Below are positions 3,723-33,047 of a DNA stretch of 64,000 nt, one piece after another. Numbering within the stretch: position 1 is the first letter of the stretch; every line of letters begins with the position of its first letter. A program made the position numbers and the translations under genes. Source of the stretch: Candidatus Bathyarchaeia archaeon (GTDB taxonomy: Archaea; Thermoproteota; Bathyarchaeia; Bathyarchaeales; Bathycorpusculaceae); NCBI GenBank assembly GCA_049522695.1, contig JBEKNP010000001.1, positions 4,261-68,260 on the forward strand. The letters are read 5' to 3'. Below the pieces are notes generated by a model. That model was not told where the DNA came from, ran no database searches, and saw nothing but the letters and a program-made list of their open reading frames with translations.

Positions 3723-4609
3723 AACTTTTAATTACTGGCGCTAGTGGTCTCTACGGCTCCAAACTAGCTGAGCTTGCTGTTGCAAGAAATTTTGAGGTTT
3801 ATTCCTGTGACGTTCAGGAGCTACCGGTTTGTGGTAACTTTGTCAAATTTGACGTTTCAAATAATGAGCTGGTCAATGAAGCGTTTAAACGCGTTAAGCC
3901 TGACGTTGTAGTTCACGCAGCTACCCTGACTGATGTGGATAAATGTGAGTTGAATAAAGAGCTTGCTTGGAAAATAAATGTTGAAGGAACAAAAAATATT
4001 GCAGAAGCAGCTAAGAGCGCCGGATCTTTTTTTATTTATATTTCGACAGATTACGTTTTCAACGGTGAAAAGGGTAACTATAAGGAGTCAGATAAGCCTG
4101 ACCCTATTAATTATTACGGTCTAACCAAACTTAAAGCTGAAGAATTGGTAAAAGCTCAACCAGAATATTTTATTGCACGTTCAAGCGTAATTTACGGTTC
4201 AACTCCTGCTGCTGGAAAAGTAAACTTTGCTCTATGGGTAATCAATACTCTGCGTAAGGGTGAACGTGTAAAGATTGTTACTGACCAGTGGAATACTCCT
4301 ACATTGAACACTAATTTGGCTGAGATGACAATGGAGGTTGTTGAGCGCAGGTTAACTGGAACGTTTCATCTTTGCGGTGCCACACGCGTAAGCAGGTTCC
4401 AGTTGGCAGAATTAATCGCTGAAGCTTTTGGCTTAGATAAGAGCCTGATTGACTCTGCTTTGTCTTCACAGTTTAAGTGGCCTGCAAAACGGCCCATGGA
4501 TTCGTCACTTGATACTTCAAAGGCTCAGCAAATTCTGGGAAACAAGCCACTGGAGATTGGTGAAGCGTTGCAAAGGTTGAAGTTGGAGCTTTTAAGGAAG
4601 AGCCCTTAA
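3719..4609 (+). CDS. rfbD: dTDP-4-dehydrorhamnose reductase
   Basis: LLITGASGLYG, STDYVFNG, YGLTK, AKRP; TTG at 3719 overlaps the rfbB stop. Confidence 0.92.
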   Translation: MKLLITGASGLYGSKLAELAVARNFEVYSCDVQELPVCGNFVKFDVSNNELVNEAFKRVKPDVVVHAATLTDVDKCELNKELAWKINVEGTKNIAEAAKSAGSFFIYISTDYVFNGEKGNYKESDKPDPINYYGLTKLKAEELVKAQPEYFIARSSVIYGSTPAAGKVNFALWVINTLRKGERVKIVTDQWNTPTLNTNLAEMTMEVVERRLTGTFHLCGATRVSRFQLAELIAEAFGLDKSLIDSALSSQFKWPAKRPMDSSLDTSKAQQILGNKPLEIGEALQRLKLELLRKSP

Positions 4610-8315: not shown

Positions 8316-8816
8316 TTGGTTAAAGAAGACAAAGAAGAACAACAGAACGCTGAAGACGAAGAAGAAATGCCCGACCTTATTGAAGATGAAACCGCTAAGA
8401 AAGAAGAACCTGTTGAAGAAACGGTAAAAGAGGAGGCTCCAGCTGAAGAGCAACCGGCAAAAGAAGAGGCAGTAGAGGAAGAGGAAGCTAAACCTAAGAA
8501 AAAGAAAGAGGAAGTAGAAATTGTTGAAGAACGAACCTACACGATTCCTCTGCAGAAAGCGCTGGTTAGGCCGCCGAAAAAGCGTGCTCCAAGAGCAATG
8601 CAGCTTGTAAAGATCTTCATAACTAAGCATATGAAACTGGAAATGAAGGTTTCTGAAGAAGAGGAAGAGGAAGAGTTACCCCAGCTTCTAATAAGCCAGG
8701 AAGTTAACGAGAAAATCTGGGATAGAGGCATAGAGAAACCTCCGCGAAAGATTCGTGTTCGAGCAGCTAAAGACAAAGACGGGAACGTAACCGTTTACTT
8801 AGCTGAAGCTCAATAA
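8316..8816 (+). CDS. rpl31e: 50S ribosomal protein L31e with long acidic N-terminal extension
   Basis: Core ERTYTIPL...KKRAPRA...IWDRGIEKPPRKIRVR preceded by ~70 E/K-rich residues. Confidence 0.92.
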   Translation: MVKEDKEEQQNAEDEEEMPDLIEDETAKKEEPVEETVKEEAPAEEQPAKEEAVEEEEAKPKKKKEEVEIVEERTYTIPLQKALVRPPKKRAPRAMQLVKIFITKHMKLEMKVSEEEEEEELPQLLISQEVNEKIWDRGIEKPPRKIRVRAAKDKDGNVTVYLAEAQ

Positions 8817-9306
8817 AATAATTATTTCTTAAATTTTTTTCTTTTATTTTAGTGCTCCGGAAGAGGCTATACTCAATCAGCCAAACCAACAACTAATTTT
8901 TCACCGCCACATTGCTTGCAGGATTTTAGGGCAAAAATGGTGGGTTAAGCGGATTTAGCCAAGTGCCAACGTTGGCAAGGCGCAAAACAGCATGAGACGC
9001 CTTATCATATGTTAGCAGCCAGACCCGCCCAACAACAGGGCTCTTAGCTGATTCTTCTTCTTTCTTGTTATTTGGTTACGATTCTAAAGAATATAAAATA
9101 ATGTTGTCACAAATTGAAGCAACAGCCGCTAAGTTACTAAAACGATTTTGTGCGTAATTGCCCTTTGTGCCTATTCATTCGATTAAATACGCATAACAAT
9201 GTCACCTGATAGGAAATCAGGAAAAAGATAACAAATACCGCTAAAAAACACGACTTGCCAGTGAAAGAAGAGAAAGGCGAAGTAATAATTTATAAACCTA
9301 AAAAGA

Positions 9307-10679: not shown

Positions 10680-11121
10680 GCACTTGGCGCAAGGAAATAA
10701 ACCAGAGGAAGAACTTCGCAAACTCAGCATGGAAATGCAATATCTAGAGCAAACAGCAGACGCATTGCAACAACGCATCAGCATGGTAAACGCAGCTATG
10801 ACAGACTTAACTTACGCTAACATGACTTTGGATGGAATTGAAAAAGAAAAAGAAAACGCTGAACTTTTGGTTCCAATCGGCGGAAGCGCTTACGTAAAAG
10901 CTAAACTTGCAGACACTAACAAGGTAATTGTGGGATTGGGTGCAGGCGTATCCATAGAAAAAACCCTGCTAGAAGCAAAAACAACTCTAAAAGAACGGTT
11001 GAATGAACTGGAAAAAACCATGAACGCCGCTCAGCAACAGTTTACCCAAGTGGCTGACCGAATGAACAAAGGCAGAAGCAGGCTTGAAACTTTGCTTGCT
11101 CCAAGAGAAGGGAAAACTTGA
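10669..11121 (+). CDS. pfdA: Prefoldin alpha subunit
   Basis: LLVPIGGSAYVKA, VIVGLGAGVSIEK, flanking coiled coils. Confidence 0.93.
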   Translation: MENKHLAQGNKPEEELRKLSMEMQYLEQTADALQQRISMVNAAMTDLTYANMTLDGIEKEKENAELLVPIGGSAYVKAKLADTNKVIVGLGAGVSIEKTLLEAKTTLKERLNELEKTMNAAQQQFTQVADRMNKGRSRLETLLAPREGKT

Positions 11122-11125
11122 AGCG

Positions 11126-12031
11126 ATGTTTGAGAAGCTCAAGTCCGGTTTCAAAGGCTTAGTAAACAAAGTTACAACAACAGAACTTAAAGCTGAAAAT
11201 CTAAACCCTATTTTATCAGAGTTCAAAATGAGCCTAGCAGAAAACGATGTGGCTTTTCCAGTAGCAGAAAAAATCAGCAACGACCTTGAAAAGCGCCTAG
11301 TCGGCGTTCAAGTTAAACGCTTGGAAGACAGAAAAAAAATCGTTGAAGAAAACCTCAGACAGGTTCTTTTAGGAGTCATGCTTACCAACAAAAGAATTGA
11401 TTTGCTCAAGTTGGCGGATGAAAAACGCAAGAAGAAAGAGCCCTTCATCTTAATGTTTGTAGGCATTAACGGCACAGGAAAAACCACTACAATCGCAAAG
11501 GTTGCACAGTTTTTCCGGGATAAAGGCTACTCTGTAGTGCTTGCTGGCGCTGACACTTACCGCGCTGGCTCAATTGAGCAGTTAGAGGAGCATGGAAAAC
11601 GTTTAGGCATTCGAGTCATCAAGAGTAATTACGGCGGTGACCCAGCGGCAGTAGCTTTTGACGCTGTAAGCCACGCTAAATCACATGGAATTAACATTGT
11701 TTTAATCGACACTGCTGGTAGAATGCAGACTAATCAAAACTTGATGAATGAACTTGTTAAAGTGAAGCGTGTCGTTGGTCCTGACTTAACTGTTTTAACC
11801 GTTGATTCACTGATTGGTAACGACGCCGTCATGCAAGCGGAAGAATTCAACAAAGCAGTCGGCGTTGACGCCACAATTTTAACAAAAGTGGATGCAGACG
11901 TGAAGGGCGGCTCCGCGCTAAGCGTAACATACGTAACTCAGAAGCCGATTTTGTTCATCGGAGTCGGGCAAACGTATAAGGATTTAGAACTGTTTAACCC
12001 TGAAAAATTCGTCAACATGGTATTACGATAA
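11126..12031 (+). CDS. ftsY: SRP receptor FtsY (NG domain only)
   Basis: GINGTGKTTT, DTYRAG, DTAGR, TKVD, GVGQ motifs; ATG MFEKLK at 11126. Confidence 0.95.
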   Translation: MFEKLKSGFKGLVNKVTTTELKAENLNPILSEFKMSLAENDVAFPVAEKISNDLEKRLVGVQVKRLEDRKKIVEENLRQVLLGVMLTNKRIDLLKLADEKRKKKEPFILMFVGINGTGKTTTIAKVAQFFRDKGYSVVLAGADTYRAGSIEQLEEHGKRLGIRVIKSNYGGDPAAVAFDAVSHAKSHGINIVLIDTAGRMQTNQNLMNELVKVKRVVGPDLTVLTVDSLIGNDAVMQAEEFNKAVGVDATILTKVDADVKGGSALSVTYVTQKPILFIGVGQTYKDLELFNPEKFVNMVLR

Positions 12032-19248: not shown

Positions 19249-21306
19249 TTATGTTGTTTTCTGTATTATCATACCTTTCGTGTAAGGAACAAACTCCCTA
19301 ATCTGCTCAATCGACGTTTTTCCAGTTTTCTCCCGTTGCTCTTTTGGCAGCTTGAGCATTAGAGATTTAAGAATTTGCTGCAAAAGCTCCTTGCCAGTCG
19401 ATTCACCAGGCGCAAGAACAACGTAAGTTTTAGTTTTCGCTTTCACGGCATCTATAGGTCCGCCGACAAAACAGGTTTCCTCATCTACAATTATGCCAAC
19501 GGCGACCTTTAGCGTTACGCTTCGTGTCCAGTTGCGTTTGCCAACAACTGCGAAGGCACCATGGGGAACGGATTCTCCTGAAGGGCCACTTTTGCTTAGC
19601 TGGTCGAGTTTAACCCAGTAAACGTCGGCTGAACCAGCGTTTTCACGCCAAGCACGCGAAAACGACGCCGCGAACTCGCCGGCTTCACGAAGCGTCTGCT
19701 CACTTATGGTTTTGCCTTCAGCCTTAACGACTACAAACGGGGCGCCTGAAATTTCAGCATGAAAAACCACATCCTCCTGTGCAGTATACTTTTTAACGAG
19801 CACTTCATTGCTCACACTGTCTTTGCCAGCAACCACCAAGAACGAGTCTGAGGAGGTGAACCAGCGGAATTTTTCATACCATTCTTTATTCTCCCTCTCC
19901 ATCTTGCGTTTGGAGAGCGCTTCCATAATTTCCGCTGGCTTGAGGCTCTTTAACTCTTCGGCGGCGCTTAGCTCCCTCTCAATTTTGGCTAACTTTTTCT
20001 TTGAATCCTCAAGCGCCGTTAATGCGCCAGCGGATTTTTGTTTCGCTTTTTTCCCGCGTTCATAATATTCATTAGCATTCTCAAAAAGTGAATGCCGCAT
20101 GTTAATGCTAAACTGCAAGTTATTCATGTAAAGGTTAAGTGCAAGGTTGCGTCCATCAAAAGATTCAATGTAAACTTCGGGTACTTTGCCGGTTTTTTTA
20201 GCCGCTAATGCGTCATTGATTACTATGTTCCAGTCTTTACCCGCCATGTTTGCGTTCAGAAGCTTGTCTTGGAATGCTTGAAGCTCGTTGAAGTGAGCGT
20301 AAATTGTATCGCCAATTAGTTTGTCCCGTTCCGCTTTGGCTTCATCTTCATGTATGGATTTTTCTTGGTCAGCAACCACCCGTTTTAGCCGTTCTGCTTC
20401 CTGCTTTAACTTATCAACTTCAACGCTGGCAAGCGCGCTTTCAGCCGTGGTTACCCGAAGGTAAAATTCATCTAACGCTTGATTAAAACTACTATAAACT
20501 TGAGTTTTGAAACCTTCATAGCGCTTAAGCTTGAAAGGAACAACATCTAAAAAGCCTCCATCCTCGTCGAGAATTATGCATGGTTCAAAATTGCCCGCTG
20601 AAACCTTTGAAAGAAAACTTTGAAGAACATCAAAAACCGCCTTAATTTCCATGTCTGTTAAGTTTTTGCATGGCTTAGCTTTGTCGACGCCAGCTCTAAG
20701 CAATACTTCTTCGGCGTAAACTCCACCGATGCCTAACAAACGGGCTGTTGTCCTGACAACCTCAGCTTCACCCGCATTTTTGAGGGCTTCCTCCAGTTCG
20801 GGTAGGGAAACTTTGAAGGGGTTCTTGCCGCTTGGAGGAGGAAACACCAAGACTTCGTTGCGCAAGATGTTGCGGTCACGCATGCGTTTAAAGAATAGAG
20901 CCTGCCAAATCATGTTTTTCTCGTTTGTTAAGATGACGTTGCCTTCGCCGAAAAGCTCCACAACAAGCTTAAGCAATCCTTCTTTAGTCTTAAAACTCAC
21001 CGTTACAATTCTTTCAAACTCGTACTGGTCAATGCTCACTACCCATGCTCCACGCAAATACTTTCTTAGTGACATGCAAAATGCTGGCGGAGCAGCTGGG
21101 CTTTCCTGTGCGTAAACGGTTGAGTGCAATCTTCGTCCTGCCTCAATGACCAATCGTATTGGTGGCAGGTTAATTTTGTGAAGCTTAAAAATCAATGTTT
21201 TCTCGCCAAGCTGATAAATGTTGTTAACTCTTGACTCAGCGATTAATCCCTTTAGTTCACTGATTGCCGCGGCAATATCAAAGCTTGTGAATTCCTTTTT
21301 GCGCAA
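19249..21306 (-). CDS. rqcH: Ribosome quality-control protein Rqc2/NFACT
   Basis: FTSFDIAAAISEL, FCMSLRKYL, ELFGEGN, WYEKFRWF, FHAEISGAP. Confidence 0.9.
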   Translation of the reverse strand: MRKKEFTSFDIAAAISELKGLIAESRVNNIYQLGEKTLIFKLHKINLPPIRLVIEAGRRLHSTVYAQESPAAPPAFCMSLRKYLRGAWVVSIDQYEFERIVTVSFKTKEGLLKLVVELFGEGNVILTNEKNMIWQALFFKRMRDRNILRNEVLVFPPPSGKNPFKVSLPELEEALKNAGEAEVVRTTARLLGIGGVYAEEVLLRAGVDKAKPCKNLTDMEIKAVFDVLQSFLSKVSAGNFEPCIILDEDGGFLDVVPFKLKRYEGFKTQVYSSFNQALDEFYLRVTTAESALASVEVDKLKQEAERLKRVVADQEKSIHEDEAKAERDKLIGDTIYAHFNELQAFQDKLLNANMAGKDWNIVINDALAAKKTGKVPEVYIESFDGRNLALNLYMNNLQFSINMRHSLFENANEYYERGKKAKQKSAGALTALEDSKKKLAKIERELSAAEELKSLKPAEIMEALSKRKMERENKEWYEKFRWFTSSDSFLVVAGKDSVSNEVLVKKYTAQEDVVFHAEISGAPFVVVKAEGKTISEQTLREAGEFAASFSRAWRENAGSADVYWVKLDQLSKSGPSGESVPHGAFAVVGKRNWTRSVTLKVAVGIIVDEETCFVGGPIDAVKAKTKTYVVLAPGESTGKELLQQILKSLMLKLPKEQREKTGKTSIEQIREFVPYTKGMIIQKTT

Positions 21307-23388: not shown

Positions 23389-24732
23389 TTATTGACCTAA
23401 TCCTATGGCGATAAATTTCATTTTTTTATTGAAAGTTTCTGGATCATAGATTCTTCTTCCATCAATCAGTATAGGTTTCTTCATGTTAGCTGTGAAATCT
23501 GCAGGGGTGAGCCTCTTAAATTCAGGCCATTCTGTTACAATTATGCAACAGTCCACGTTTTTGATGCAGTCAAGTGCCGAAGTGGCGTACTGGATTTTGT
23601 TGTTAAAAATGGTTTTTGCGGTGGATATGGCGACTGGGTCGTAGGCGATTATGTTGGCGCCTTCTTTAAGTAGCTGTTTTATTATGGGGATGACTCGGGC
23701 TTCTCTCATATCGTCCGTGTCAGGTTTGAAAGCCAAGCCTAAGATAGCTATTTTTTTGCCTTCCAGGTCGCCGAGTTGTTGTTTGCAGAACTGGACGGCT
23801 TTGAGGGGTTGAGTATGGTTTACGTTTTCGACGGATTCTAAGAGTTCAGGAGTGTAATCTAAGGCTTTTGAGGAGGCAATAAGGGCTTTTACGTCTTTGG
23901 GGAAGCATGAGCCGCCGTAACCTAACCCTGCGTCTAGGAATAGGGACCCTATGCGTTTGTCTAGTCCCATGGCTGTTGCCACATCTTTCACGTCTGCACC
24001 GGGTATTTTCTCGCATATGTTCGCGATAGTGTTTATGAAGCTGATTTTTGTAGCTAACATGGCGTTGCTAGAGTATTTTATGAGTTCAGCTGTGGAAACT
24101 GTGGTTCTAATTATTGGAGGTACATGAGCGCTGTAGAAGTCTTTGTATAACTCTTCCAAGGCATCGCCTGATTGTTTATCGTACGAGCCGATAACTACAC
24201 GGTCGGCGTTTAATGTGTCTTGGAATGCTGAGCCCTGACGAAGAAATTCTGGGTTCATGCATAAACCGAAACCTATACCGCATCTTTTTTTTGATTCTTT
24301 TTCGAGGATGGGTTTGACGGTGCTCTGGGTTGTTCCCGGTACGACGGTGCTTTTAATTATGGTAACATGGTAGTGGTTCTTTTGTCTTAGCGCTTTGCCT
24401 ATGTCATGCGCGGCCGATTTTATGTATTTGAGGTCTATGCTACCGTTCGGTTTGCTTGGAGTACCAACTGTTACAAAAGTCAAGTCTGATTCATACACGG
24501 CTTTTTCTGTTTGGTTAACTAGGCATTTCAAATTGCCTCTTTGAACGCTGGCCTTTAGTTTTTCCTGGAGACCAGGTTCATGGAACGGGGGGACGCCTTG
24601 GTTTATTTTTTTGGCTTTCTCGCTGTCTACTTCTGAAGCTACGACGCTATAGCCTTTACTTGAGAATCCAACTGCCGTGCATAATCCTACGTACCCAACG
24701 CCTATAACTGAGATTTTTGGTTGTTTTTTCAA
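23389..24732 (-). CDS. ugd: UDP-glucose/GDP-mannose dehydrogenase
   Basis: GVGYVG, VGTPS, KSTVVPGT, NPEFLRQG, GYGGSCFPKD, GLAFKPDTDDMRE. Confidence 0.95.
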   Translation of the reverse strand: MKKQPKISVIGVGYVGLCTAVGFSSKGYSVVASEVDSEKAKKINQGVPPFHEPGLQEKLKASVQRGNLKCLVNQTEKAVYESDLTFVTVGTPSKPNGSIDLKYIKSAAHDIGKALRQKNHYHVTIIKSTVVPGTTQSTVKPILEKESKKRCGIGFGLCMNPEFLRQGSAFQDTLNADRVVIGSYDKQSGDALEELYKDFYSAHVPPIIRTTVSTAELIKYSSNAMLATKISFINTIANICEKIPGADVKDVATAMGLDKRIGSLFLDAGLGYGGSCFPKDVKALIASSKALDYTPELLESVENVNHTQPLKAVQFCKQQLGDLEGKKIAILGLAFKPDTDDMREARVIPIIKQLLKEGANIIAYDPVAISTAKTIFNNKIQYATSALDCIKNVDCCIIVTEWPEFKRLTPADFTANMKKPILIDGRRIYDPETFNKKMKFIAIGLGQ

Positions 24733-24821: not shown

Positions 24822-25694
24822 TTGATGATTCGCAAAGTTATTATCCCAGCTGCAGGTTTAGGAACACGGCTGTTTCCGGCTACTAAAGAGCAGCCTAAAG
24901 AGATGCTTCCAATTTTCAGCAAGACCGCACAGGGTGAAATGGTAGTAAAGCCAGTCGTGCAACTAGTTTTCGAGCAATTATATGATGCTGGGCTTCGTGA
25001 ATTCTGTTATATTGTGGGCAGAGGTAAACGGGGAATAGAAGACCATTTCACTCCTGATGCGCATTGCATTAGAACGCTTGAAGGCATGGGCAAAAACGGG
25101 CAAGCGTCTGATCTTGAGGTTTTTTATGAGAAACTTGAGACTTCGACTACCATGTGGGTTAATCAGCCTGAACCGAAAGGGTTTGGAAACGCGGTTTTAT
25201 TGGCTCAACCCTTCGTGCAGAACGAAAGTTGCTTGGTGCATGCGGGAGATAGCTGCATAATATCGAAAGATATGGATTACATAAAGAAGCTGCTTGAAGC
25301 CTTTGAGCGGTTTAATTCGGATGCTACATTTCTTGTGATGGAAATTGAGAATCCCAAGCAGTACGGAATCGTTGAAGGAAACGAGGTAGAAGGGGGAATA
25401 ATAAAAGTAAAGTCGGTAGTTGAGAAACCCGAAAAGCCCAAGACCAACTGGGCAATTATGGCAATGTATGTTTTTCGCCCCATTATTTTTAAAGCCTTAG
25501 AGACGACAGAGCCTGGAAAGAACGGGGAAATCCAGCTTACCGATTCAATACAGAAGCTTATTGATTGGGGCTTGAAAGTGCACGCTGTAAAGCTGGACAA
25601 GAGCTATGAACACTTGGATATCGGCAGTCCTGAAAGATATTGGCAAGCCCTAGAATTGTCGTATCAACAGTTTTGTAAGAGACCAAACATATGA
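24822..25694 (+). CDS. galU: UTP-glucose-1-phosphate uridylyltransferase
   Basis: PAAGLGTRLFPATKEQPKEMLP, QPEPKGFGNAV, GEIQLTD. Confidence 0.88.
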   Translation: MMIRKVIIPAAGLGTRLFPATKEQPKEMLPIFSKTAQGEMVVKPVVQLVFEQLYDAGLREFCYIVGRGKRGIEDHFTPDAHCIRTLEGMGKNGQASDLEVFYEKLETSTTMWVNQPEPKGFGNAVLLAQPFVQNESCLVHAGDSCIISKDMDYIKKLLEAFERFNSDATFLVMEIENPKQYGIVEGNEVEGGIIKVKSVVEKPEKPKTNWAIMAMYVFRPIIFKALETTEPGKNGEIQLTDSIQKLIDWGLKVHAVKLDKSYEHLDIGSPERYWQALELSYQQFCKRPNI

Positions 25695-26692
25695 AAGACA
25701 AAATAATCAGCGAAGATCTTGAAAAGATAAAGAGCGCCGCTGACAAAGACGCCTTTACAGAAAAGAAAGTGCTCGTTTCCGGTGGGGCAGGGTTTATTGG
25801 CAGTTGGCTTTGCGATGTGCTGGTAGCTTTTGGCGCTGATGTGACAGCTGTGGATGACCTGTCCACTGGAAGGATCAAAAACATTGACCATTTAACCAAA
25901 AACCCGCTTTTCAAGTTTGTAAAGTCTGATGTTTGCGCGTTCGAGAGCAAGCAAAAGTTTGATTTTATTTTTCACATGGCGGGACATGCGTCGCCTGATG
26001 AATATCAAGCGCATCCAATTGAGACCTTACAAACTAGCGCTTTAGGTAGTTTTAGTATGTCGGAGTTAGCTAGGAAAAATGATGCTACATTGTTGTTTGC
26101 TTCAACTTCGGAGGTTTATGGTGACACAGAGGTTATTCCTACACCTGAGAGTTATTGGGGAAAAGTTAACCCCATTGGGCCTAGATCATGTTACGACGAA
26201 GGAAAGCGGTTTGCCGAAGCTTTGCTAATGGCTTATGAAAAGCAATATGGGTTGGATGTCAGAGTGCCAAGAATCTTCAATTCTTATGGTCCGCGCTTGC
26301 GAGAGGATGGCTTGTATGGCAGGGCTATTTCACGTTTTATCTTGCAAGCTTTGACTAATCAGCCCATAACAGTTTATGGGAATGGAAAACAAACCCGCTC
26401 CTTCTGCTATATAACCGATACAGTAACATGTTTATTGTTGCTGATAGTTGCTTCCAATGTCAAGGGCGAAGTCGTGAATGTTGGCAATGCTCAGGAAGTG
26501 ACTGTTTTGGAGCTTGCACAAAAGATTAAAGACATAACTAAATGCACATCACCTATTACGTTCCATCCGCTGCCGAAGGATGACCCGAAAAGACGCTGCC
26601 CAGACACAACCAAACTGGAGAGGCTCATCGGGTGGAAACCGAATGTATGCTTTGAGGAAGGGCTAAAAAGAACTGTATCGTGGTTTTTATAA
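25691..26692 (+). CDS. uxs: UDP-glucuronate decarboxylase (UDP-xylose synthase)
   Basis: GGAGFIGS, STSEVYG, VNPIGPRSCYDEGKR, RIFNSYGPR, LPKDDPKRRCPD. Confidence 0.92.
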   Translation: MKDKIISEDLEKIKSAADKDAFTEKKVLVSGGAGFIGSWLCDVLVAFGADVTAVDDLSTGRIKNIDHLTKNPLFKFVKSDVCAFESKQKFDFIFHMAGHASPDEYQAHPIETLQTSALGSFSMSELARKNDATLLFASTSEVYGDTEVIPTPESYWGKVNPIGPRSCYDEGKRFAEALLMAYEKQYGLDVRVPRIFNSYGPRLREDGLYGRAISRFILQALTNQPITVYGNGKQTRSFCYITDTVTCLLLLIVASNVKGEVVNVGNAQEVTVLELAQKIKDITKCTSPITFHPLPKDDPKRRCPDTTKLERLIGWKPNVCFEEGLKRTVSWFL

Positions 26693-27079: not shown

Positions 27080-27303
27080 TCAGAGCAGTTCCAAAAACTC
27101 TTCCCTTGTAATACCTGCTTGCCTGAGTATTGATTTCAGGGTTCTCTTGCTACTTCTGAATGACCAGGAACGATAACAATAAGAACTTTGTTTGTTTCCT
27201 TCTTCTTCAATTTCACGTGGCTTCCTTTTCTTCCCTCAACAGTAAAGCCTGCTTTGGTTAAGGCTTTAATTACCTTTCGACCTGAGATTACGGGTAGGGC
27301 CAC
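27080..27303 (-). pseudogene. hicA: HicA toxin, frameshifted
   Basis: MALPVISGRKVIKAL...GSH...VPGH then aga-gaa-ccc-TGA; restoring one G gives RGTLKSILRQAGITREEFLELL. Confidence 0.85.
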
Positions 27304-27562
27304 GTACGTCCACCTTAACTATAGTTACGATGGGAACTTCAGCTTCAGAAGGCTTTTCTATATTCTCATCTTCCAAATACAATTCAAGCGCCTCCTTTAG
27401 ATTTGCTAAAGCTTCTTCAATACTTTTACCCTGGCTTGCCACATCAAACTCAGGATACAAGGCTACATAAAGCCGACCATCTCTCCGAACAACCGCTGAA
27501 AGCTCCAAGCTATCGCTGATTTGCATAAATCTTTTCACATTCAACATGATACATACCTTCAA
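27266..27562 (-). CDS. hicB: Short HicB-type antitoxin (start uncertain)
   Basis: YVALYPEFDVASQGKSIEEALANLKEALELYLE motif; overlaps the hicA start. Confidence 0.85.
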   Translation of the reverse strand: MKVCIMLNVKRFMQISDSLELSAVVRRDGRLYVALYPEFDVASQGKSIEEALANLKEALELYLEDENIEKPSEAEVPIVTIVKVDVRGPTRNLRSKGN

Positions 27563-27630
27563 AATAAACTTTCACTAAAACATTAGCAGATGCACGATGA
27601 TTTTTGTTTTTTGTTTGGCTAAAAAAATTG

Positions 27631-27681
27631 TTTGTTTTTTGGGTTGCTTATTTGAAGCAAAGCTTAAATCATTTGCAGGTT
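27631..27681 (+). repeat. 51-bp conserved block, copy A (inverted homolog at 56301-56351)
   Basis: TTTGTTTTTTGGGTTGCTT-N22-TTTGCAGGTT; same spacing as the reverse complement of 56301-56351. Confidence 0.75.
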
Positions 27682-27760
27682 GCGTATTAAAAAGATCTAA
27701 AACGTATTAAAACGTCCTAGAAAGTTCCTGTTCGTCCGAAAAAGGTTTGGAAAGGTTGAG
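27681..27760 (+). repeat. Degenerate 10-bp-period array A
   Basis: tgcgtattaa/aaagatctaa/aacgtattaa/aacgtcctag/aaagttcctg/ttcgtccgaa/aaaggtttgg/aaaggttgag. Confidence 0.5.
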
Positions 27761-27932: not shown

Positions 27933-28035
27933 AGTGCGTTCTCAGTATATTTCTCTTATTTGGTTAGGTTCCTATTATCGCAAAGCTTATCAAATTCGAA
28001 CTACCTGAACGCCAGTTGCCATAGGAGAATAAACG

Positions 28036-28485
28036 GTGATTTCCAAGGTTAAAAAGAATGGTTTCATTCCTTCCGTTCTCTATAACAAAATATTGAGGTT
28101 GATGCCCATTGTATCGGTTGAAGCTGTAATAGTAATGGGCAATGCACTCTTGTTTCTAAAGAGGAAAAATCAGCCAGCTAAGGGGCAATGGTGGTTCCCT
28201 GGAGGCAGAATACATAAAGGCGAATCTTTTGAGGAAACGCTGTACCGCGAAGTCAAAGAAGAAACGAACCTAGAGATAAGCTCCTGCAAATTCATCAATG
28301 TCTACTCGAGAGTGTTCTCAGAGCGGCATGATATAACCATAGCCTACATATGCAAATGTAAAGAGGGCACCATAAAATTAGACAGCGAACACTCAGAGTA
28401 CAAACTGTTTAGAACCATGCCGACTGACTTGCACCCATACCTGCTAGAAACCATACGAGACTCAAAATGGAAAAAAGAATTGTAG
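28036..28485 (+). CDS. NUDIX hydrolase, GDP-mannose mannosyl hydrolase-like (copy 1)
   Basis: NQPAKGQWWFPGGRIHKGESFEETLYREVKEET Nudix box. Confidence 0.88.
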   Translation: MISKVKKNGFIPSVLYNKILRLMPIVSVEAVIVMGNALLFLKRKNQPAKGQWWFPGGRIHKGESFEETLYREVKEETNLEISSCKFINVYSRVFSERHDITIAYICKCKEGTIKLDSEHSEYKLFRTMPTDLHPYLLETIRDSKWKKEL

Positions 28486-28511
28486 TACCATTCAGCACCG
28501 TTCTGATGGTT

Positions 28512-28654
28512 CTATTTGCCTAAGCCTATGGCAGTAAATTTGAGTTTTTGGCTGAAGACTTCTGGATTGTAGATTCGTTCGCCGTCGAAGAGTGCGGGTT
28601 GCTTCATGTTTATGATGAACTCTTCGGACGTGATGCTTTGAATTCGCCCCATTC
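28512..28654 (-). pseudogene. 3'-end remnant of a second ugd gene
   Basis: EWGEFKASRP/EFIINMKQPALFDGERIYNPEVFSQKLKFTAIGLGK* (one frameshift) versus the intact ugd end EWPEFKRLTPADFTANMKKPILIDGRRIYDPETFNKKMKFIAIGLGQ*. Confidence 0.85.
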
Positions 28655-28698
28655 GACATCTTAAAATATAAAGTTACCAAGTGATATATGGTGATTTC

Positions 28699-28908
28699 AT
28701 GCCTGAAGGTGTTCTCTTGACTGATAACGACAGGGTTCTACTTGTGAAGGTGAGCAGCCTGCTTGAGGAAATAGTTGAGACTTTCAGCATATTGGAAGAT
28801 AGAAAAGCTATGTCATGTTTAAAGCAAGCAGAAAAAGATGTCAAAGCTGGAAGAGTTAGAGACTATGATGAATTTCTAAGGGAGCTGAAAAAAGCTGGAG
28901 AAATATAA
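28699..28908 (+). CDS. RelB-like antitoxin
   Basis: ETFSILED...LKQAEKDVKAGRVRDYDEFL pattern; overlaps the relE remnant. Confidence 0.75.
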   Translation: MPEGVLLTDNDRVLLVKVSSLLEEIVETFSILEDRKAMSCLKQAEKDVKAGRVRDYDEFLRELKKAGEI

Positions 28909-29149
28909 ACTTAGTTACAAGGACTTTTGAAAAAAATTTTCGAGCTCTTGACATCCAAACAAAAAGGAGAATAGATTCAACAATAAAAATGCTTGAAATT
29001 GACCCTTATGTTGGCAAGCCTCTGCGTGAAAATCTTGCGGGTAAGTGGTCACTTAGAGTCAGCGACTACAGAATCATCTACGAGATAAATGAAAATGAGA
29101 AAATAATAATGCTCTATGATACTGAGAATGGAAGAAAGTCTACAAATAA
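28895..29149 (+). pseudogene. RelE/ParE-family toxin with two frameshifts
   Basis: VTRTFEKNFRALD...DPYVGKPLRENLAGKWSLRVSDYRIIYEI; N-terminal KYKL and C-terminal KKVYK lie in other frames; no in-frame start. Confidence 0.82.
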
Positions 29150-29159
29150 AAGTAATAGA

Positions 29160-29295
29160 TAGGCTACAACAAGGTTAATGTTGTTGGTGGCAAGCTCGCA
29201 GGCTAAGGCGAAAAATTGTAAACGTTGGCAACGCTCAAGAAGTCACATACATGAGCTGGCAAAGAAAGTCAAAGAAATTACAAGATGCCAATCAC
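29160..29295 (+). pseudogene. Internal remnant of a second uxs gene
   Basis: LLVASSQAK/IVNVGNAQEVT/HELAKKVKEITRCQS (frameshifted) versus intact uxs LLIVASNVKGEVVNVGNAQEVTVLELAQKIKDITKCTS. Confidence 0.8.
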
Positions 29296-29432
29296 ATAAA
29301 ACGGTGCAAGTCCAACCTCAAATAAAAAAAGTACCGCTCAAAAACAAACAAACCACAGCAAACGAGCTATTTTTCGGATTAAGCTCTTAGGAAGATAGCA
29401 GATACATCGAATATGTTTAAGAAAAATGAATT

Positions 29433-29918
29433 TTATGCTAAAATTTGTTGCTTTAGATCTTTTTCATCTTTTGTAATGTGATATGTTTCTAACCCCATTT
29501 TATTGCTTGTTTTGGCGAGTTTTTCATCTGCGGTTATTAACGCATCGCTTTTGCTGTGCTTGCAAGTGGCTATTTGGAGTGCATCTGCTTCGTAGACGTG
29601 GTTGGTTATCACAGTGTCCCAAGTATCAGTGAGGACGGGTGTGTGTATGGGAATAACCTCTATGGCTTCGAGGCGCATTAGTTTTACGAGTTCATTGGCG
29701 AAATTTTTCAGTGTTTGGCTGAACTCTTCTTCGGTTAGCCAGGCTTTTCTGCGCCTTTCGTGGAGAACTCCTAATGCTTCTCCGATATTCCACAGCGAGA
29801 TAGATATTGTAAGTTCGCCTGTTTCGGCTTTATCGAAGATAATGTCGGTTGTTTCGGTGCCCGGTTCTGTCACATACCGCTTCAGTATGACGCTAGTGTC
29901 GAGGTAAAGTTTCCGCAA
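29433..29918 (-). CDS. vapC: VapC/PIN-domain toxin (intact)
   Basis: LYLDTSV, E in WNIGEAL, YEADALQIA and TADEKL: acidic tetrad present. Confidence 0.9.
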   Translation of the reverse strand: MRKLYLDTSVILKRYVTEPGTETTDIIFDKAETGELTISISLWNIGEALGVLHERRRKAWLTEEEFSQTLKNFANELVKLMRLEAIEVIPIHTPVLTDTWDTVITNHVYEADALQIATCKHSKSDALITADEKLAKTSNKMGLETYHITKDEKDLKQQILA

Positions 29919-30189
29919 CTCTTCTGCGCCTCATCTCTTTCACGATTTCCTTTGCTGGCGGTCCCTTGAGCGTAGTTCTTGTTTGTTTTATTTCCTGTGA
30001 AGAAGTTGTCCCCTTCACTGCGATGCCGGTTTTCTTAAACGCTGAAAGGATTTCGTCTTCCATGATTGTGGCTCGCAGGAGCTCTTCAACTTCGCTGCTT
30101 ATTTTTCGCAGGTTTCCGTGCTTCTGGAATACCTGCGTTTTAAATTTCAACCACACCGAATCATCCACGTAGACGCTTACTTTAGTCAA
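29893..30189 (-). CDS. RHH-type antitoxin (VapB-like)
   Basis: MTKVSVYVDDSVWLKFK RHH start; overlaps the PIN gene start. Confidence 0.8.
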   Translation of the reverse strand: MTKVSVYVDDSVWLKFKTQVFQKHGNLRKISSEVEELLRATIMEDEILSAFKKTGIAVKGTTSSQEIKQTRTTLKGPPAKEIVKEMRRRRVAETLPRH

Positions 30190-30207
30190 CTCTATACCTC
30201 TAAACTG

Positions 30208-30221
30208 GTTTACTGGTAAAC
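30208..30221. promoter_or_regulatory. Candidate autoregulatory operator of vapBC
   Basis: GTTTAC-TG-GTAAAC inverted repeat 19-32 nt upstream of the antitoxin start. Confidence 0.5.
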
Positions 30222-30246
30222 AGACATATAGGATTTTCGGAATGGA

Positions 30247-30336
30247 CTTGCTGAGTGGAAGCCAAACGTGGGCTTTGAAGAAGAACTCGAGAGAGCAATA
30301 ATGTGGTTTGTGCCAAAAAACGCAGCATATAGATAG
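30247..30336 (+). pseudogene. 3'-end remnant of a second uxs gene
   Basis: LAEWKPNVGFEEELERAIMWFVPKNAAYR* versus intact uxs LIGWKPNVCFEEGLKRTVSWFL*. Confidence 0.8.
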
Positions 30337-30602
30337 AGCAAGAAAAACGGAAAAATACGCATAAACCTGTCTGACCCTAACTATTCAGAGTCCCCATTTC
30401 CCGTTACAGTTTTCAAGCGTACAAACCACAAGAAGCAGAAAGCACCTATCACCTAACATATTAAACATTCAGGGCATTTGAGAAAAAGCCGAGACGCAAC
30501 TGTTGAGAACTGGAGCGATTCGACGGAAGGAGACTTTAAAGACTTAAAGTTTTATATATGCAGGTTCCTATAACCCAGTAAACTTTATAAAAGTGACTAA
30601 AG

Positions 30603-31319
30603 ATGGCGCTGAAAATTCGAACTGCTGTAGTGCTTGTGGGTGGGTCGGGGTTGCGCATGCGCCCTCTTACGGAAGACCTGCCCAAATGCATGATTCCCTT
30701 GCGCGGAAAACCTCTCCTGTACTGGACGCTCACCTGGCTTCGGGACCACGGCTTTGACCACGTGGTTCTTGGTGTATCTCACCGCAAAGAAGTAGTGATC
30801 AACTACGTTAAAGAAAACCCGCTGGGAATCAAAGTGGATTTCAGTGAGCATACACAGGAAGGTGAAACGGGAGAAGGCTTTCGGCTTGCCATCAAAAGGC
30901 ACGTAAACGACGAGAACTTCCTCGCCATGAACGGCGACGAACTGACCAATATGAATCTTGAGAAATTCGTCGATTTTCACTTTGCACAAAAAGGCATAGC
31001 AACAATAGCCGTGTCGCCCATGCGGTCACCATTCGCCGTTCTTGAGCTAAACGGAAACGATATCGTGGAATTCAAAGAGAAACCCTTACTTGAAGACAAG
31101 GTCATAAACGCAGGTATCTATGTTTTCAATCACGCTATTTGTGACTACTTGCCCATTACAGGCTCCATTGAGAAAACTGCGTTTCCTGCGCTCGCAGAAA
31201 AACGACTTCTCAAAGGATACCGGCTGGGCAAGGGTGAACGTTGGCTAACCATTAATAGCGTTAAAGATTTATCTATAGCCGAAAAAGAGTTTGAATCAAT
31301 ACGAGGTCTCAAAAAATGA
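30603..31319 (+). CDS. Sugar-phosphate nucleotidyltransferase (mannose-1-P guanylyltransferase-like)
   Basis: LVGGSGLRMRPLTEDLPKCMIP, MNGD, INAGIY. Confidence 0.8.
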   Translation: MALKIRTAVVLVGGSGLRMRPLTEDLPKCMIPLRGKPLLYWTLTWLRDHGFDHVVLGVSHRKEVVINYVKENPLGIKVDFSEHTQEGETGEGFRLAIKRHVNDENFLAMNGDELTNMNLEKFVDFHFAQKGIATIAVSPMRSPFAVLELNGNDIVEFKEKPLLEDKVINAGIYVFNHAICDYLPITGSIEKTAFPALAEKRLLKGYRLGKGERWLTINSVKDLSIAEKEFESIRGLKK

Positions 31320-32272
31320 AAGTTCTCATTACAGGTATACTGGGTTTCATAGGAAGCAATCTGGCAGAGAAACTTGTGACCAACGGGGACGAGGTTTACG
31401 GTCTTGTCCGTCGCGTAGCAAGCAGAAACTTGGATGCCCTTGGCGAAACAGTCAAAGACGTAACATTAGTATCAGGAGACATTACAGACTATGCGTCCAC
31501 CCGAAACGCCCTGAAAATCGCAAACCCAGACGTTGTTTTTCACTTAGCTGCCCTGAGTCCAGTTCGCGATTCTTTTGAGCGCCCATTCGAGTATCAACAG
31601 GCAAATTTTACAGGCACAATGAACGTAGCTCACGCTCTATTAGAACTGCCTGATCCCCAAAAGCGGAAGTTGATTGCCGCCTCAACCGCCGAAGTGTACG
31701 GTATACAGGGTAATGAACCGCTAAAAGAGACGCTTACACTGAAGCCGTCAAGTCCTTACGCCGTAACCAAGGCTGCAGGCGACTTGTACTTGCAGATGAT
31801 GTTCAACTCGTTCGATCTGCACGGCACCGTGATGAGACCAACTAACTCGTACGGCAGGAAATTTGAGAAGAATTTCATGGTTGAATACCTCATTACTCAG
31901 ATGTTGAAGGGCGAAAGTCTGTATATTGGCGCTCCTGACTCCGTGAGGGATTACATGTATGTGGACGACCACGTAAATGCTTATGTGCTTGTCGCCAAAA
32001 ACCCAAAGGCAAATGGACAGGTTTACAATGCGGGTACCGGGATCGGCGTAACAAATGGGCAACTGGCTGAAATGATAGCTCAGAAGGCAGGATACGACAC
32101 TAAGAAGATAAAGTTCGGTTCCTATCCTCCGGGCTACCCGCTTAGACCCTTATCATCTGACCAACCCTACCTTGTGCTCGACGCCACGAAAATCAAGAAA
32201 GACATCAACTGGTCATCAAAGTACAATCTAAGCGAAGGATTAGACAAAGTAATCGCGAACCTCAAAAACTGA
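31316..32272 (+). CDS. Extended SDR, GDP-sugar dehydratase/reductase family
   Basis: GILGFIG, HLAALSPV, STAEVYG, SPYAVTK, RPTNSYG, RDYMYV. Confidence 0.8.
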   Translation: MKVLITGILGFIGSNLAEKLVTNGDEVYGLVRRVASRNLDALGETVKDVTLVSGDITDYASTRNALKIANPDVVFHLAALSPVRDSFERPFEYQQANFTGTMNVAHALLELPDPQKRKLIAASTAEVYGIQGNEPLKETLTLKPSSPYAVTKAAGDLYLQMMFNSFDLHGTVMRPTNSYGRKFEKNFMVEYLITQMLKGESLYIGAPDSVRDYMYVDDHVNAYVLVAKNPKANGQVYNAGTGIGVTNGQLAEMIAQKAGYDTKKIKFGSYPPGYPLRPLSSDQPYLVLDATKIKKDINWSSKYNLSEGLDKVIANLKN

Positions 32273-32547
32273 AGTACCAAGGTGACCAAGTGGGTAGAAA
32301 ATACGGCGGTGAAGCATCGATTCAGCTTTAGGCAACTTAAGAAGCAACGCCATAGCAAAAATGACCAACATAAAAACCAACCATATAAACTAAAGAGAAA
32401 CTCGAAGATTCCAATCCTTTGCTATTTGGACAAATGGATCGAACATTATCAGGGTATTTCTCTCATGGTTCGGTGCCTCATACCGCAAAATTTATCAAAT
32501 TCGAACAAACTCCCATAAACGCAATCTGCGATAGGAGAATAAAATGG

Positions 32548-33047
32548 GTGAGTTCAGAGATTAAAAAAATGGTTCCATTCCTTCTGTTCGCTTCGAGCAA
32601 ATAATGAAGTTGATGCACATTGTATCGGTTGAAGCTGTAATAGTAATGGGCAATGCACTCTTGTTTTTAAAGAGGAAAAATCAGCCAGCTAAGGGGCAAT
32701 GGTGGTTCCCTGGAGGCAGAATACATAAAGGCGAATCTTTTGAGGAAACGCTGTACCGCGAAGTCAAAGAAGAAACAGGTCTGCAAATAATCGCCCATAG
32801 CTTTATAGGCGTATACTCAAGGGTTTTTCCTGAAAGACACGGCATAACAATAATTTACTTATGTAAATGCAAAGGCCCAGTAACACTTGACAACGAACAC
32901 TCAGAGTACAAACTGTTTAAAAACACCCCGTCCGATTTGCATCCTTACCTGCTTGAAACCATAAAAGATTCAGAATGGGAAAAAATCTGTAATACCATAC
33001 GAATTAGTTTACGTTATATTCCCTTTAATTGCAGTTTTCACTGTTGA
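32548..33047 (+). pseudogene. NUDIX hydrolase copy 2, 5' frameshift in an A7 run (can restart at ATG 32604)
   Basis: Alignment with copy 1 requires A8 at 32563-32569 but only 7 A are present; 159-nt core almost identical to 28107-28265. Confidence 0.7.

Follow-up and report, generated by a model that had tools for sequence, protein, structure and literature searches.

A probable second ugd-galU-uxs module remnant interleaved with toxin-antitoxin cassettes in a Bathyarchaeia genome, and integrase-less cassette arrays behind uxs in its relatives

In bacterial O-antigen and capsule loci, islands are exchanged by recombination in nucleotide-sugar genes, and gene remnants are found at the joints. 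Archaeal mobile elements integrate at the 3'-distal regions of tRNA and protein genes and form tandem arrays there (Krupovic et al. 2019, PMC6563490), while the chromosomal toxin-antitoxin (TA) "spots" of bacteria have been attributed to acquisition through mobile genetic elements followed by streamlining and erosion (Belot et al. 2026, PMC13617665). How chromosomal TA pairs travel without a visible mobile element is still an open question. Here, we describe a segment at 28.5-30.3 kb in a 64-kb stretch of a Bathyarchaeia metagenome-assembled genome (MAG; assembly GCA_049522695.1, contig JBEKNP010000001.1, forward-strand positions 4,261 to 68,260), in which fragments of the nucleotide-sugar genes ugd and uxs alternate with two TA pairs, relBE and vapBC, together with the TA cassette arrays that lie behind uxs in related genomes. 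The window hereafter denotes the whole 64-kb stretch.

The habitat given for the source archaeon is soil/peat, and the comparison genomes, all of them MAGs, originate from peat, bog, and Danish soil metagenomes. Labels of the form G### denote genomes, L### module loci, and C# contigs, and the names ugd, galU, uxs, relB, and vapB serve as working labels wherever curated cut-offs are unmet. A ugd(-)/galU/uxs module is kept in about 62 Bathyarchaeia loci. The window contains one intact copy, designated M1, and the decayed segment, designated the ghost, with the following features (aa, amino acid):

23389..24732, minus strand: ugd (nucleotide-sugar dehydrogenase) of M1, a 447-aa open reading frame (ORF)
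24822..25694, plus strand: galU-like sugar-1-phosphate nucleotidyltransferase of M1, a 290-aa ORF
25691..26692, plus strand: uxs-like extended short-chain dehydrogenase/reductase (SDR) of M1, a 333-aa ORF
28512..28667, minus strand: ugd 3' scar (aa 397-447 and stop), from tBLASTn, convergent with Nudix1 and 26 bp from its stop
28661..29149, plus strand: relBE cassette with promoter, relB at 28681-28908, the relE frame from 28911, and the native relE stop at 29147-29149
29153..29301, plus strand: uxs internal scar (aa ~240-290), frameshifted, from DNA alignment and tBLASTn
29302..29362, no strand assigned: A-rich degenerate spacer, either mutated uxs (aa 291-311) or the 3' flank of vapC
29363..30241 (left edge ~29363), minus strand: vapBC cassette, vapC at 29433-29918, vapB at 29893-30189, promoter region at 30190-30241
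30247..30336, plus strand: uxs 3' scar (aa 312 to stop), from tBLASTn and DNA alignment

Within M1, Ugd passes TIGR03026 (449 bits, cut-off 190), the best NCBIfam match of GalU is TIGR01099 (galU) at a score below the model's cut-off, and Uxs matches SDR dehydratase/epimerase models below their equivalog cut-offs. No UXS-specific match was obtained for this SDR among the curated models searched, and its genomic context would suggest a role as UDP-glucuronate decarboxylase.

The initial annotation had read the segment as the ghost of a second module, with scars of ugd and uxs that keep the order and orientation of the intact one. Both the scars and their colinearity with ugd(-)/galU/uxs hold, as all three fragments are significant in window-wide tBLASTn searches. 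M1 Ugd aligns through aa 408-447 to 28634-28515 on the minus strand (58% identity, E=2e-10), and other Ugd alleles as query lengthen the match to aa 397-447 at 28515-28667 (67 bits; 59% identity and 67 bits with the L044 allele). The ugd scar, initially placed at 28512-28654, thus extends to 28667, where it abuts the relBE unit. M1 Uxs aligns through aa 246-296 to 29169-29321 on the plus strand (E=1e-3) and through aa 312-333 to 30247-30312 on the plus strand (59% identity, E=4e-4). These matches have DNA-level counterparts, with 81-85% identity between 29153-29301 and uxs of L077 and L084 (E~1e-31) and 92% identity between 30255-30420 and L062 (E=2e-62). The internal scar therefore begins not at 29160, as first drawn (29160-29295), but at ~29153 (aa 240), 4 nt past the native relE stop, and the ~27 uxs codons thought to be missing at vapBC shrink to a stretch of ~21 codons (aa 291-311) that carries no significant uxs homology.

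A contiguous uxs fragment in G004 (aa 248-324) corresponds to both uxs scars of the window. The 68-bp spacer at 29295-29362 plus 30242-30251 amounts to 78 bp, the length that this stretch has in a G004 copy without interruption, with a similarity to the G004 stretch that stays below significance (p=0.11). A duplication of uxs aa 303-311 on either side of vapBC was considered and rejected: L044 matches 29880-30241 at 86% and diverges beyond, which assigns 30190-30241 to the cassette as the vapB promoter rather than to uxs, and the left tail is not significantly uxs-like. A tBLASTn search of the whole window with M1 GalU returned no galU remnant in the ghost, and the genome holds neither further copies of the ugd and uxs scar pieces nor any ugd fragment besides the scar at 28512-28667. 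The ghost uxs pieces are 81-92% identical to alleles of other species and only 66-73% identical to M1, and an in-situ tandem duplication as the only origin of the ghost is for this reason disfavoured, while an older duplication followed by allele replacement remains compatible with these values. Taken by itself, the ghost is an ordinary pseudogene remnant.

The two TA pairs within it are sharply delimited. The edges of relBE were set by alignment with copies in G013, G003, G018, and G017; the unit begins at 28661, about 20 nt before relB, includes a TATA-like box, and in G003, G018, and G017 the copies diverge directly outside its edges. The slack between the ugd scar and relBE is 0-7 nt, and 4 nt separate the native relE stop from the uxs internal scar. 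The relE/uxs junction is common to the window and G013 at 86-92% identity, and this junction is consequently old or inherited. The RelE toxin (28989-29162) matches ParE/RelE PF05016 (26.4 bits, cut-off 23) and scores 26.4 bits against RelE/StbE TIGR02385, just under the cut-off of 27.9. The VapC PIN domain (PF01850, 42.8 bits, cut-off 23.6) shows four acidic residues in translation (D7, E47, D112, and D130), vapB and vapC overlap by 26 nt, and a vapBC homologue in G023 has 60-62% amino-acid identity and the opposite orientation. Neither RelB (75 aa) nor VapB has a family match in Pfam or NCBIfam. As to the state of relE, its first ATG is at 28989, and the conserved N-terminal 26 codons (28911-28988) are open but contain no ATG, GTG, or TTG start; an ATA overlaps the relB stop. 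Close to the relE end, a 1-nt loss moves the stop from 29147 to 29160, so that the ORF reaches 29162. The toxin may be translated by coupling, or it may be decaying.

The view of the TA pairs as discrete units that show no insertion sequence (IS) ends was confirmed: their promoter-to-stop edges recur unchanged in other contexts, and no IS ends, miniature inverted-repeat transposable element (MITE) ends, inverted repeats, target-site duplications, or transposase were found beside relBE or vapBC, where the TA genes are the sole ORFs. Likewise, no Rfam family was found in 26.0-33.5 kb. IS/MITE ends and dif-like sites were also sought at the four junctions themselves and are rejected as candidates, none of the palindromes looked for being present.

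Such edges invite an explanation along the lines of the initial annotation, in which either TA pair would have come in through a one-step replacement or an illegitimate insertion that deleted the displaced sequence and left no repeats or element ends; capture during double-strand-break repair and an unknown TA-specific mobilisation are examples. The window units are indeed butt-joined to the scars within 0-7 nt and without flanking duplication, relBE and a UPF0175/PIN cassette described below keep their promoter-to-stop edges in unrelated contexts, and the movement of chromosomal TA loci is still debated (PMC13617665). Sharp edges are, however, equally expected where an addictive cassette stops deletions; most cassettes in relatives are flanked by duplicated target sequence, which replacement does not predict; and the relBE/uxs junction is common to G013, so it provides no evidence of a recent one-step event. 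Overall, we regard one-step replacement as an unlikely general explanation. For relBE itself, the sequence accommodates either a one-step replacement of 3 kb (the ugd 5' region, galU, and the uxs 5' region) or an entry downstream of a complete uxs with later deletion up to the promoter.

The relatives place the window in a broader setting. In G004, 8 uxs 3' fragments follow the intact uxs, with TA pairs, AAA ATPases, and an acetyltransferase fragment placed between them, and the last part of the array consists of a uxs fragment, an intergenic region, and the genes NTP2-Epim2. Comparable arrays occur in G003, G019, G023, G013, L044, L045, L071, L072, L077, and L084. About 31 extra uxs fragments were identified in at least 12 genomes, all on the uxs strand, all downstream of uxs, and all derived from aa >=194 (mostly aa 248-334), with sizes of 45-370 bp and identities of 75-97%. 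The repeat units may extend beyond the stop codon, as in G023 (~350 bp, three copies, 83-85% identity), and a 293-bp unit in G013 takes in the end of the convergent neighbour gene. Among 79 array proteins are 16 PIN proteins (7 of DUF3368 type) and 7 UPF0175 antitoxins, and others include ParE toxins, VapB/CcdA-type antitoxins, and AAA_14/DUF4143 or ATPase_2 ATPases. An assembly collapse of the arrays is unlikely because the repeats are too diverged, and the G003 assembly is a single contig.

Several further observations concern the content of these arrays. G046 and G094 probably hold arrays as well, with 2-3 uxs 3' copies within 2-4 kb (G046:C162 4857-6946, G046:C92 24058-26582, and G094:C3 296241-300530). 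In one array, L047/L014 (G004:C28), a UPF0175/PIN cassette occurs twice (11034-11934 and 19533-20431, 94% identity); a recent duplication within the array is suggested by the uxs fragments on either side of the second copy, which have 52 nt in common at 98% identity. A retropepsin-like aspartyl protease paired with a DUF5678 protein (L077 14203-14963 and L015 14986-15746, 91% identity) appears to behave as another cassette common to two arrays.

The mobility of these cassettes is best illustrated by an occupied and an empty site. The array flanks of G003 and L072 are 95-97% identical, and G003 contains an extra block consisting of a uxs end, 110 bp, vapBC, and uxs aa 260-328, with the resident fragment (from aa 312 on) on one side and the intergenic region on the other. 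At the same place L072 has one fragment only, and the difference amounts to exactly one cassette and one repeat. Two repeat copies when occupied and one when empty are a signature of insertion-type recombination, homologous or att-type, and the difference is what one reciprocal exchange with an ends-in or circular molecule would leave behind, as would its reversal. A conserved motif, GTGGAAGCC, was evaluated as a recurrent att-core breakpoint and rejected, as it has a single independent instance (G003/L072).

This observation is further strengthened by the divergence of the repeats relative to their cargo. The flanking repeats are regularly 80-85% identical around cassettes that are 90-97% identical between species, and this holds even around a cassette 97% identical between species. 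Such divergence fits one donor and one recipient copy and is at odds with repeats that arise by copying during the insertion. About 14 of the 120 species in the genus carry the UPF0175/PIN cassette, which forms a discrete unit of 895 bp and is far more conserved than the host genes, being 82-97% identical where the adjacent ugd-galU-uxs genes are only 72-86% identical. Its right junction is the same in L084, G019, G004, and L045, with a uxs fragment from aa 280. In G107, the cassette keeps 19 nt of uxs yet follows another small ORF, the end of which supplies the 68-bp repeats on both sides of the cassette (81% identity). A relBE homologue in G003 (at 1.10 Mb) similarly lies between 78-bp repeats that are 83% identical. 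Inserts in relatives are thus enclosed by direct repeats of the 3' end of the target, and relBE and vapBC in the window are not. The initial annotation had postulated an unrecognised mobilisation route; the lack of IS and integrase agrees with this, but such a route is not required, since relatives show repeat-flanked cassettes and a one-repeat empty site.

The co-orientation of the uxs fragments also raises the possibility that the arrays are stacked small integrative elements whose attachment site (att) is 3'-distal uxs, with a tyrosine or other recombinase acting in trans or lost, the uxs fragments as repeats of attL/attR type, and the TA pairs as the last cargo left from decayed elements. 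Archaeal elements do target and stack at the 3'-distal parts of protein genes (PMC6563490), the uxs fragments are all co-oriented and 3'-derived, 18 tyrosine recombinase genes elsewhere in G000 could act in trans, and two uxs 3' fragments in G003 enclose a terminase large subunit, a ParE toxin, and a GNAT relic. Against this, no tyrosine recombinase (PF00589) was found on six contigs, namely the window's own contig, G000:C1, and the array contigs of G003, G004, G013, G019, and G023, and no integrase was found at strong E-values among the 79 array proteins, so that a linked integrase is rejected. The left ends of the fragments are spread continuously between aa 194 and aa 314, and their right ends are variable as well, with no constant core; the repeats are long (45-370 bp) and may include a neighbouring gene's end; and one cassette is found behind different genes. 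A virus or plasmid carrying a uxs-3' attP was likewise sought in IMG/VR, where no viral contig with a uxs-3' fragment was found and the search yielded only full-length uxs genes with <50% identity. Taken together, stacked integration at such a site appears improbable, although an att-type recombinase working in trans is still a competitor to be taken seriously. The G003 relic (L031 14534-19815, G003:C1 ~503.4-508.7 kb), in which the large terminase subunit, of T4 type, is accompanied by a possible small subunit, GNAT, a split ATPase, a ParB-like protein, and the ParE toxin, contains no integrase and is probably the remnant of a head-tailed provirus.

The explanation we favour, to which we give an even chance, invokes known processes, namely ends-in (Campbell-type) homologous recombination involving related species' DNA, deletion, and TA addiction. 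Under this scheme, the TA cassettes of the genus would be gained and lost chiefly by homologous insertion-type recombination, in which a cassette carrying a piece of the preceding gene's 3' end would pair with the resident gene end and integrate, leaving the target gene intact and a diverged second tail copy beyond the cassette. Recombination between tail repeats would subsequently delete, duplicate, and reshuffle cassettes, of which the addictive ones would persist. Homologous insertion, deletion, and addiction would together account for the co-orientation and 3'-only origin of the fragments, their variable ends, the diverged repeats, the enrichment in TA pairs, and the lack of mobility genes. 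In the window, the setting would be a surface-glycan island remodelled through recombination with related species' DNA, where the second functional module, M1, would have made the older copy redundant and deletions would have removed it. A deletion reaching into a TA pair would kill the cell, and the TA pairs with their adjoining gene ends would thus survive.

Several points weigh against this account. No duplicated sequence flanks relBE or vapBC in the window, implying that entry was non-duplicative or that the duplicate was lost later. Cassettes whose sharp ends are identical occur at unrelated loci (G091, G107, and G003 at 1.10 Mb), and at least some moves must accordingly have involved joining without homology. 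In the organisms in which it has been measured, homologous recombination proceeds inefficiently at a divergence of 15-20%. Module identity may also understate genome-wide identity, because the module has itself been exchanged. In six relatives, the divergent promoter region that separates ugd and galU in intact modules contains leftovers of a second 5' end, either of ugd (aa 1-82; L031/L016 in G003 at 8796-9040, and also L022, L062, and L072) or of galU (aa 1-26; L021 and L080); they indicate exchange of the module with imprecise ends and weaken the argument that the cassettes are younger than their hosts. One ugd allele type (91-100% identical) is also common to six species whose galU-uxs differ more, which suggests allelic replacement of ugd with imprecise ends. 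Finally, the ugd 3' scar of the window could have come in with imported Nudix-flank DNA rather than as part of a full second module.

This last point requires the flanks of the ghost to be considered, which contain the following features:

27136..27562, minus strand: hicAB, a third TA pair, between M1 and the ghost, with hicA at 27136-27303 and a hicB-like gene at 27266-27562
27939..28491, plus strand: AbrB-like 3' part and Nudix1 (28036-28485), the left repeat copy, from DNA identity
30337..32272, plus strand: intergenic region followed by NTP2 (30603-31319) and Epim2 (31316-32272), 91% identical to G004
32446..33047, plus strand: AbrB-like 3' remnant and Nudix2, the right repeat copy (repeat 32446-32998), followed by fcl(-), gmd(-), and rfbF(+)

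The AbrB-Nudix sequence forms a 553-bp direct repeat, its copies 80% identical in DNA, which encloses the ghost, NTP2, and Epim2. Nudix1 matches NUDIX PF00293 with 63.5 bits. The Nudix context leading into fcl, gmd, and rfbF belongs to the right copy only; it stands straight after uxs in L060 and is present in G002. In L040 and L026, NTP2-Epim2 follows within about 80 bp after uxs, and in L062 and L077 an intact uxs leads into intergenic sequence of the window type at 89-92% identity. Given these arrangements, 30247-30336 with the intergenic region and NTP2-Epim2 represents the original right end of uxs; identities of 86-92% also link the uxs 3' scar region with L062/L077, where the uxs end is intact, and with G004, G019, and L072, where a terminal fragment is present. 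That NTP2-Epim2 still adjoins the ghost makes the latter the probable resident, and older, copy. M1, by comparison, is 87.7% identical as a whole to the G004 module, its homology to all other loci ends exactly at the module boundaries, and its RadA flank is unique among the loci compared. These findings fit the addition of a second module block by recombination at the Nudix anchor, or an old segmental duplication of which one copy then decayed. G001 provides an independent mirror image, with a uxs 3' fragment and a TA cassette just past the ugd end of an intact module.

The same flanks could also be read as the product of a single module, in which case the uxs pieces would be array repeats behind M1 and the ugd piece an imported part of the AbrB-Nudix flank. 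The single G004 module is followed by a like array that ends in the uxs 3' fragment, intergenic region, and NTP2-Epim2; the contiguous G004 fragment matches the window's two uxs scars; and G013 has relBE with a uxs fragment but no ugd scar. However, the ugd scar stands exactly in the module position and orientation relative to the uxs pieces, and among the ~65 loci no other one shows a ugd 3' end behind uxs, so that a routine import of ugd ends is not seen. Moreover, G001 shows that tandem modules with one reduced copy exist, and several MAGs have two module loci. On balance, a history in which no second module ever existed is possible but rather doubtful, and we consider it likely that 28.5-30.3 kb is the remnant of a true second ugd-galU-uxs module.

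Three further observations relate to these flanks and to the duplicated loci. The HicA of the third TA pair matches PF07927 with 48.5 bits, and no direct repeats flank hicAB. A 45-90-nt element at 27598-27702 has at least 13 copies in the genome and many in relatives (78-95% identity), occurs also on G000 contigs C9, C13, C24, C47, C51, C62, C100, C104, C105, and others, lies mostly directly upstream of small AbrB-like genes, and matches no Rfam family; it could represent either a small mobile repeat or, in a paralogous gene family, a conserved leader or promoter. In several MAGs, two ugd-galU-uxs loci occur on separate contigs (L075 (G023:C5), L039/L041, L050/L052, L038/L057, and L027/L061), some of the copies being frameshifted; such loci could reflect true second modules, a mixture of strains, or homopolymer errors of long reads.

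The before and after states of cassette movement are thus present in nature, as an occupied and empty pair, as one cassette at three kinds of site, and as arrays of up to 8 repeats. The route to which they point is a gene-tail-guided homologous insertion followed by deletion that spares only addictive cassettes. As read here, the data also show a surface-glycan module replaced via a two-copy intermediate. More tentatively, the genus might harbour integrase-less, "homology-armed" TA/ATPase cassettes which carry mimics of conserved gene 3' ends, chiefly that of uxs, home to these ends in new hosts without disrupting the gene, pass between species at a pace that exceeds the divergence of host genes, and build integron-like arrays held by addiction. 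If confirmed, the gene-tail-guided route would constitute an archaeal, recombinase-free counterpart to cassette arrays and would account for TA pairs being the last residents of decaying gene clusters.

Comparison with the described systems reveals both shared and distinct properties. The arrays of Krupovic et al. 2019 (PMC6563490) likewise have blocks bounded by direct repeats of the target 3' end in one orientation, re-use of the site, and cryptic relics with terminase and VapBC; unlike in those arrays, no integrase lies in or near the arrays described here, the repeats, rather than forming a short fixed att, are 45-370 bp long, vary at their ends, and are 75-97% identical, and the units are mostly 0.5-1.5 kb with only a TA pair or one ATPase. 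Sedentary chromosomal integrons (Vibrio; PMC11023631) likewise hold small single-function cassettes between repeats, many of them TA, and addiction is thought to guard the array against inter-repeat deletion, an idea that may apply equally here. In contrast to integrons, the present arrays have no IntI-type recombinase, no attI, and no imperfect palindromes of attC type, their separators are pieces of one housekeeping-type gene, uxs, and their cassettes carry their own promoters. The minimal mobile elements of Neisseria (PMC3787668) resemble them as cassettes without mobility genes that strains swap by homologous recombination in conserved flanking genes, but they lie between two different conserved genes and exchange ends-out without duplication, whereas here one gene end is doubled, ends-in; because this end is duplicated on both sides, cassettes accumulate. 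The ugd 5' and galU 5' remnants in relatives recall the junction remnants of O-antigen and capsule loci; unlike in those loci, gene remnants in the present arrays are repeated up to 8 times in alternation with TA cassettes. With the bacterial TA spots (PMC13617665), these loci share the clustering of TA in small high-turnover regions, often without a mobile-element gene, their selfish and addictive character, and the streamlining of neighbours; gene-end repeats and a matrix of decayed gene clusters are not described there. The window may therefore be viewed as an archaeal parallel to those spots with gene-tail repeats in addition. What is new is the genus-wide occurrence behind uxs of integrase-less, repeat-bounded TA cassette arrays, which are related to the known cassette and att arrays.

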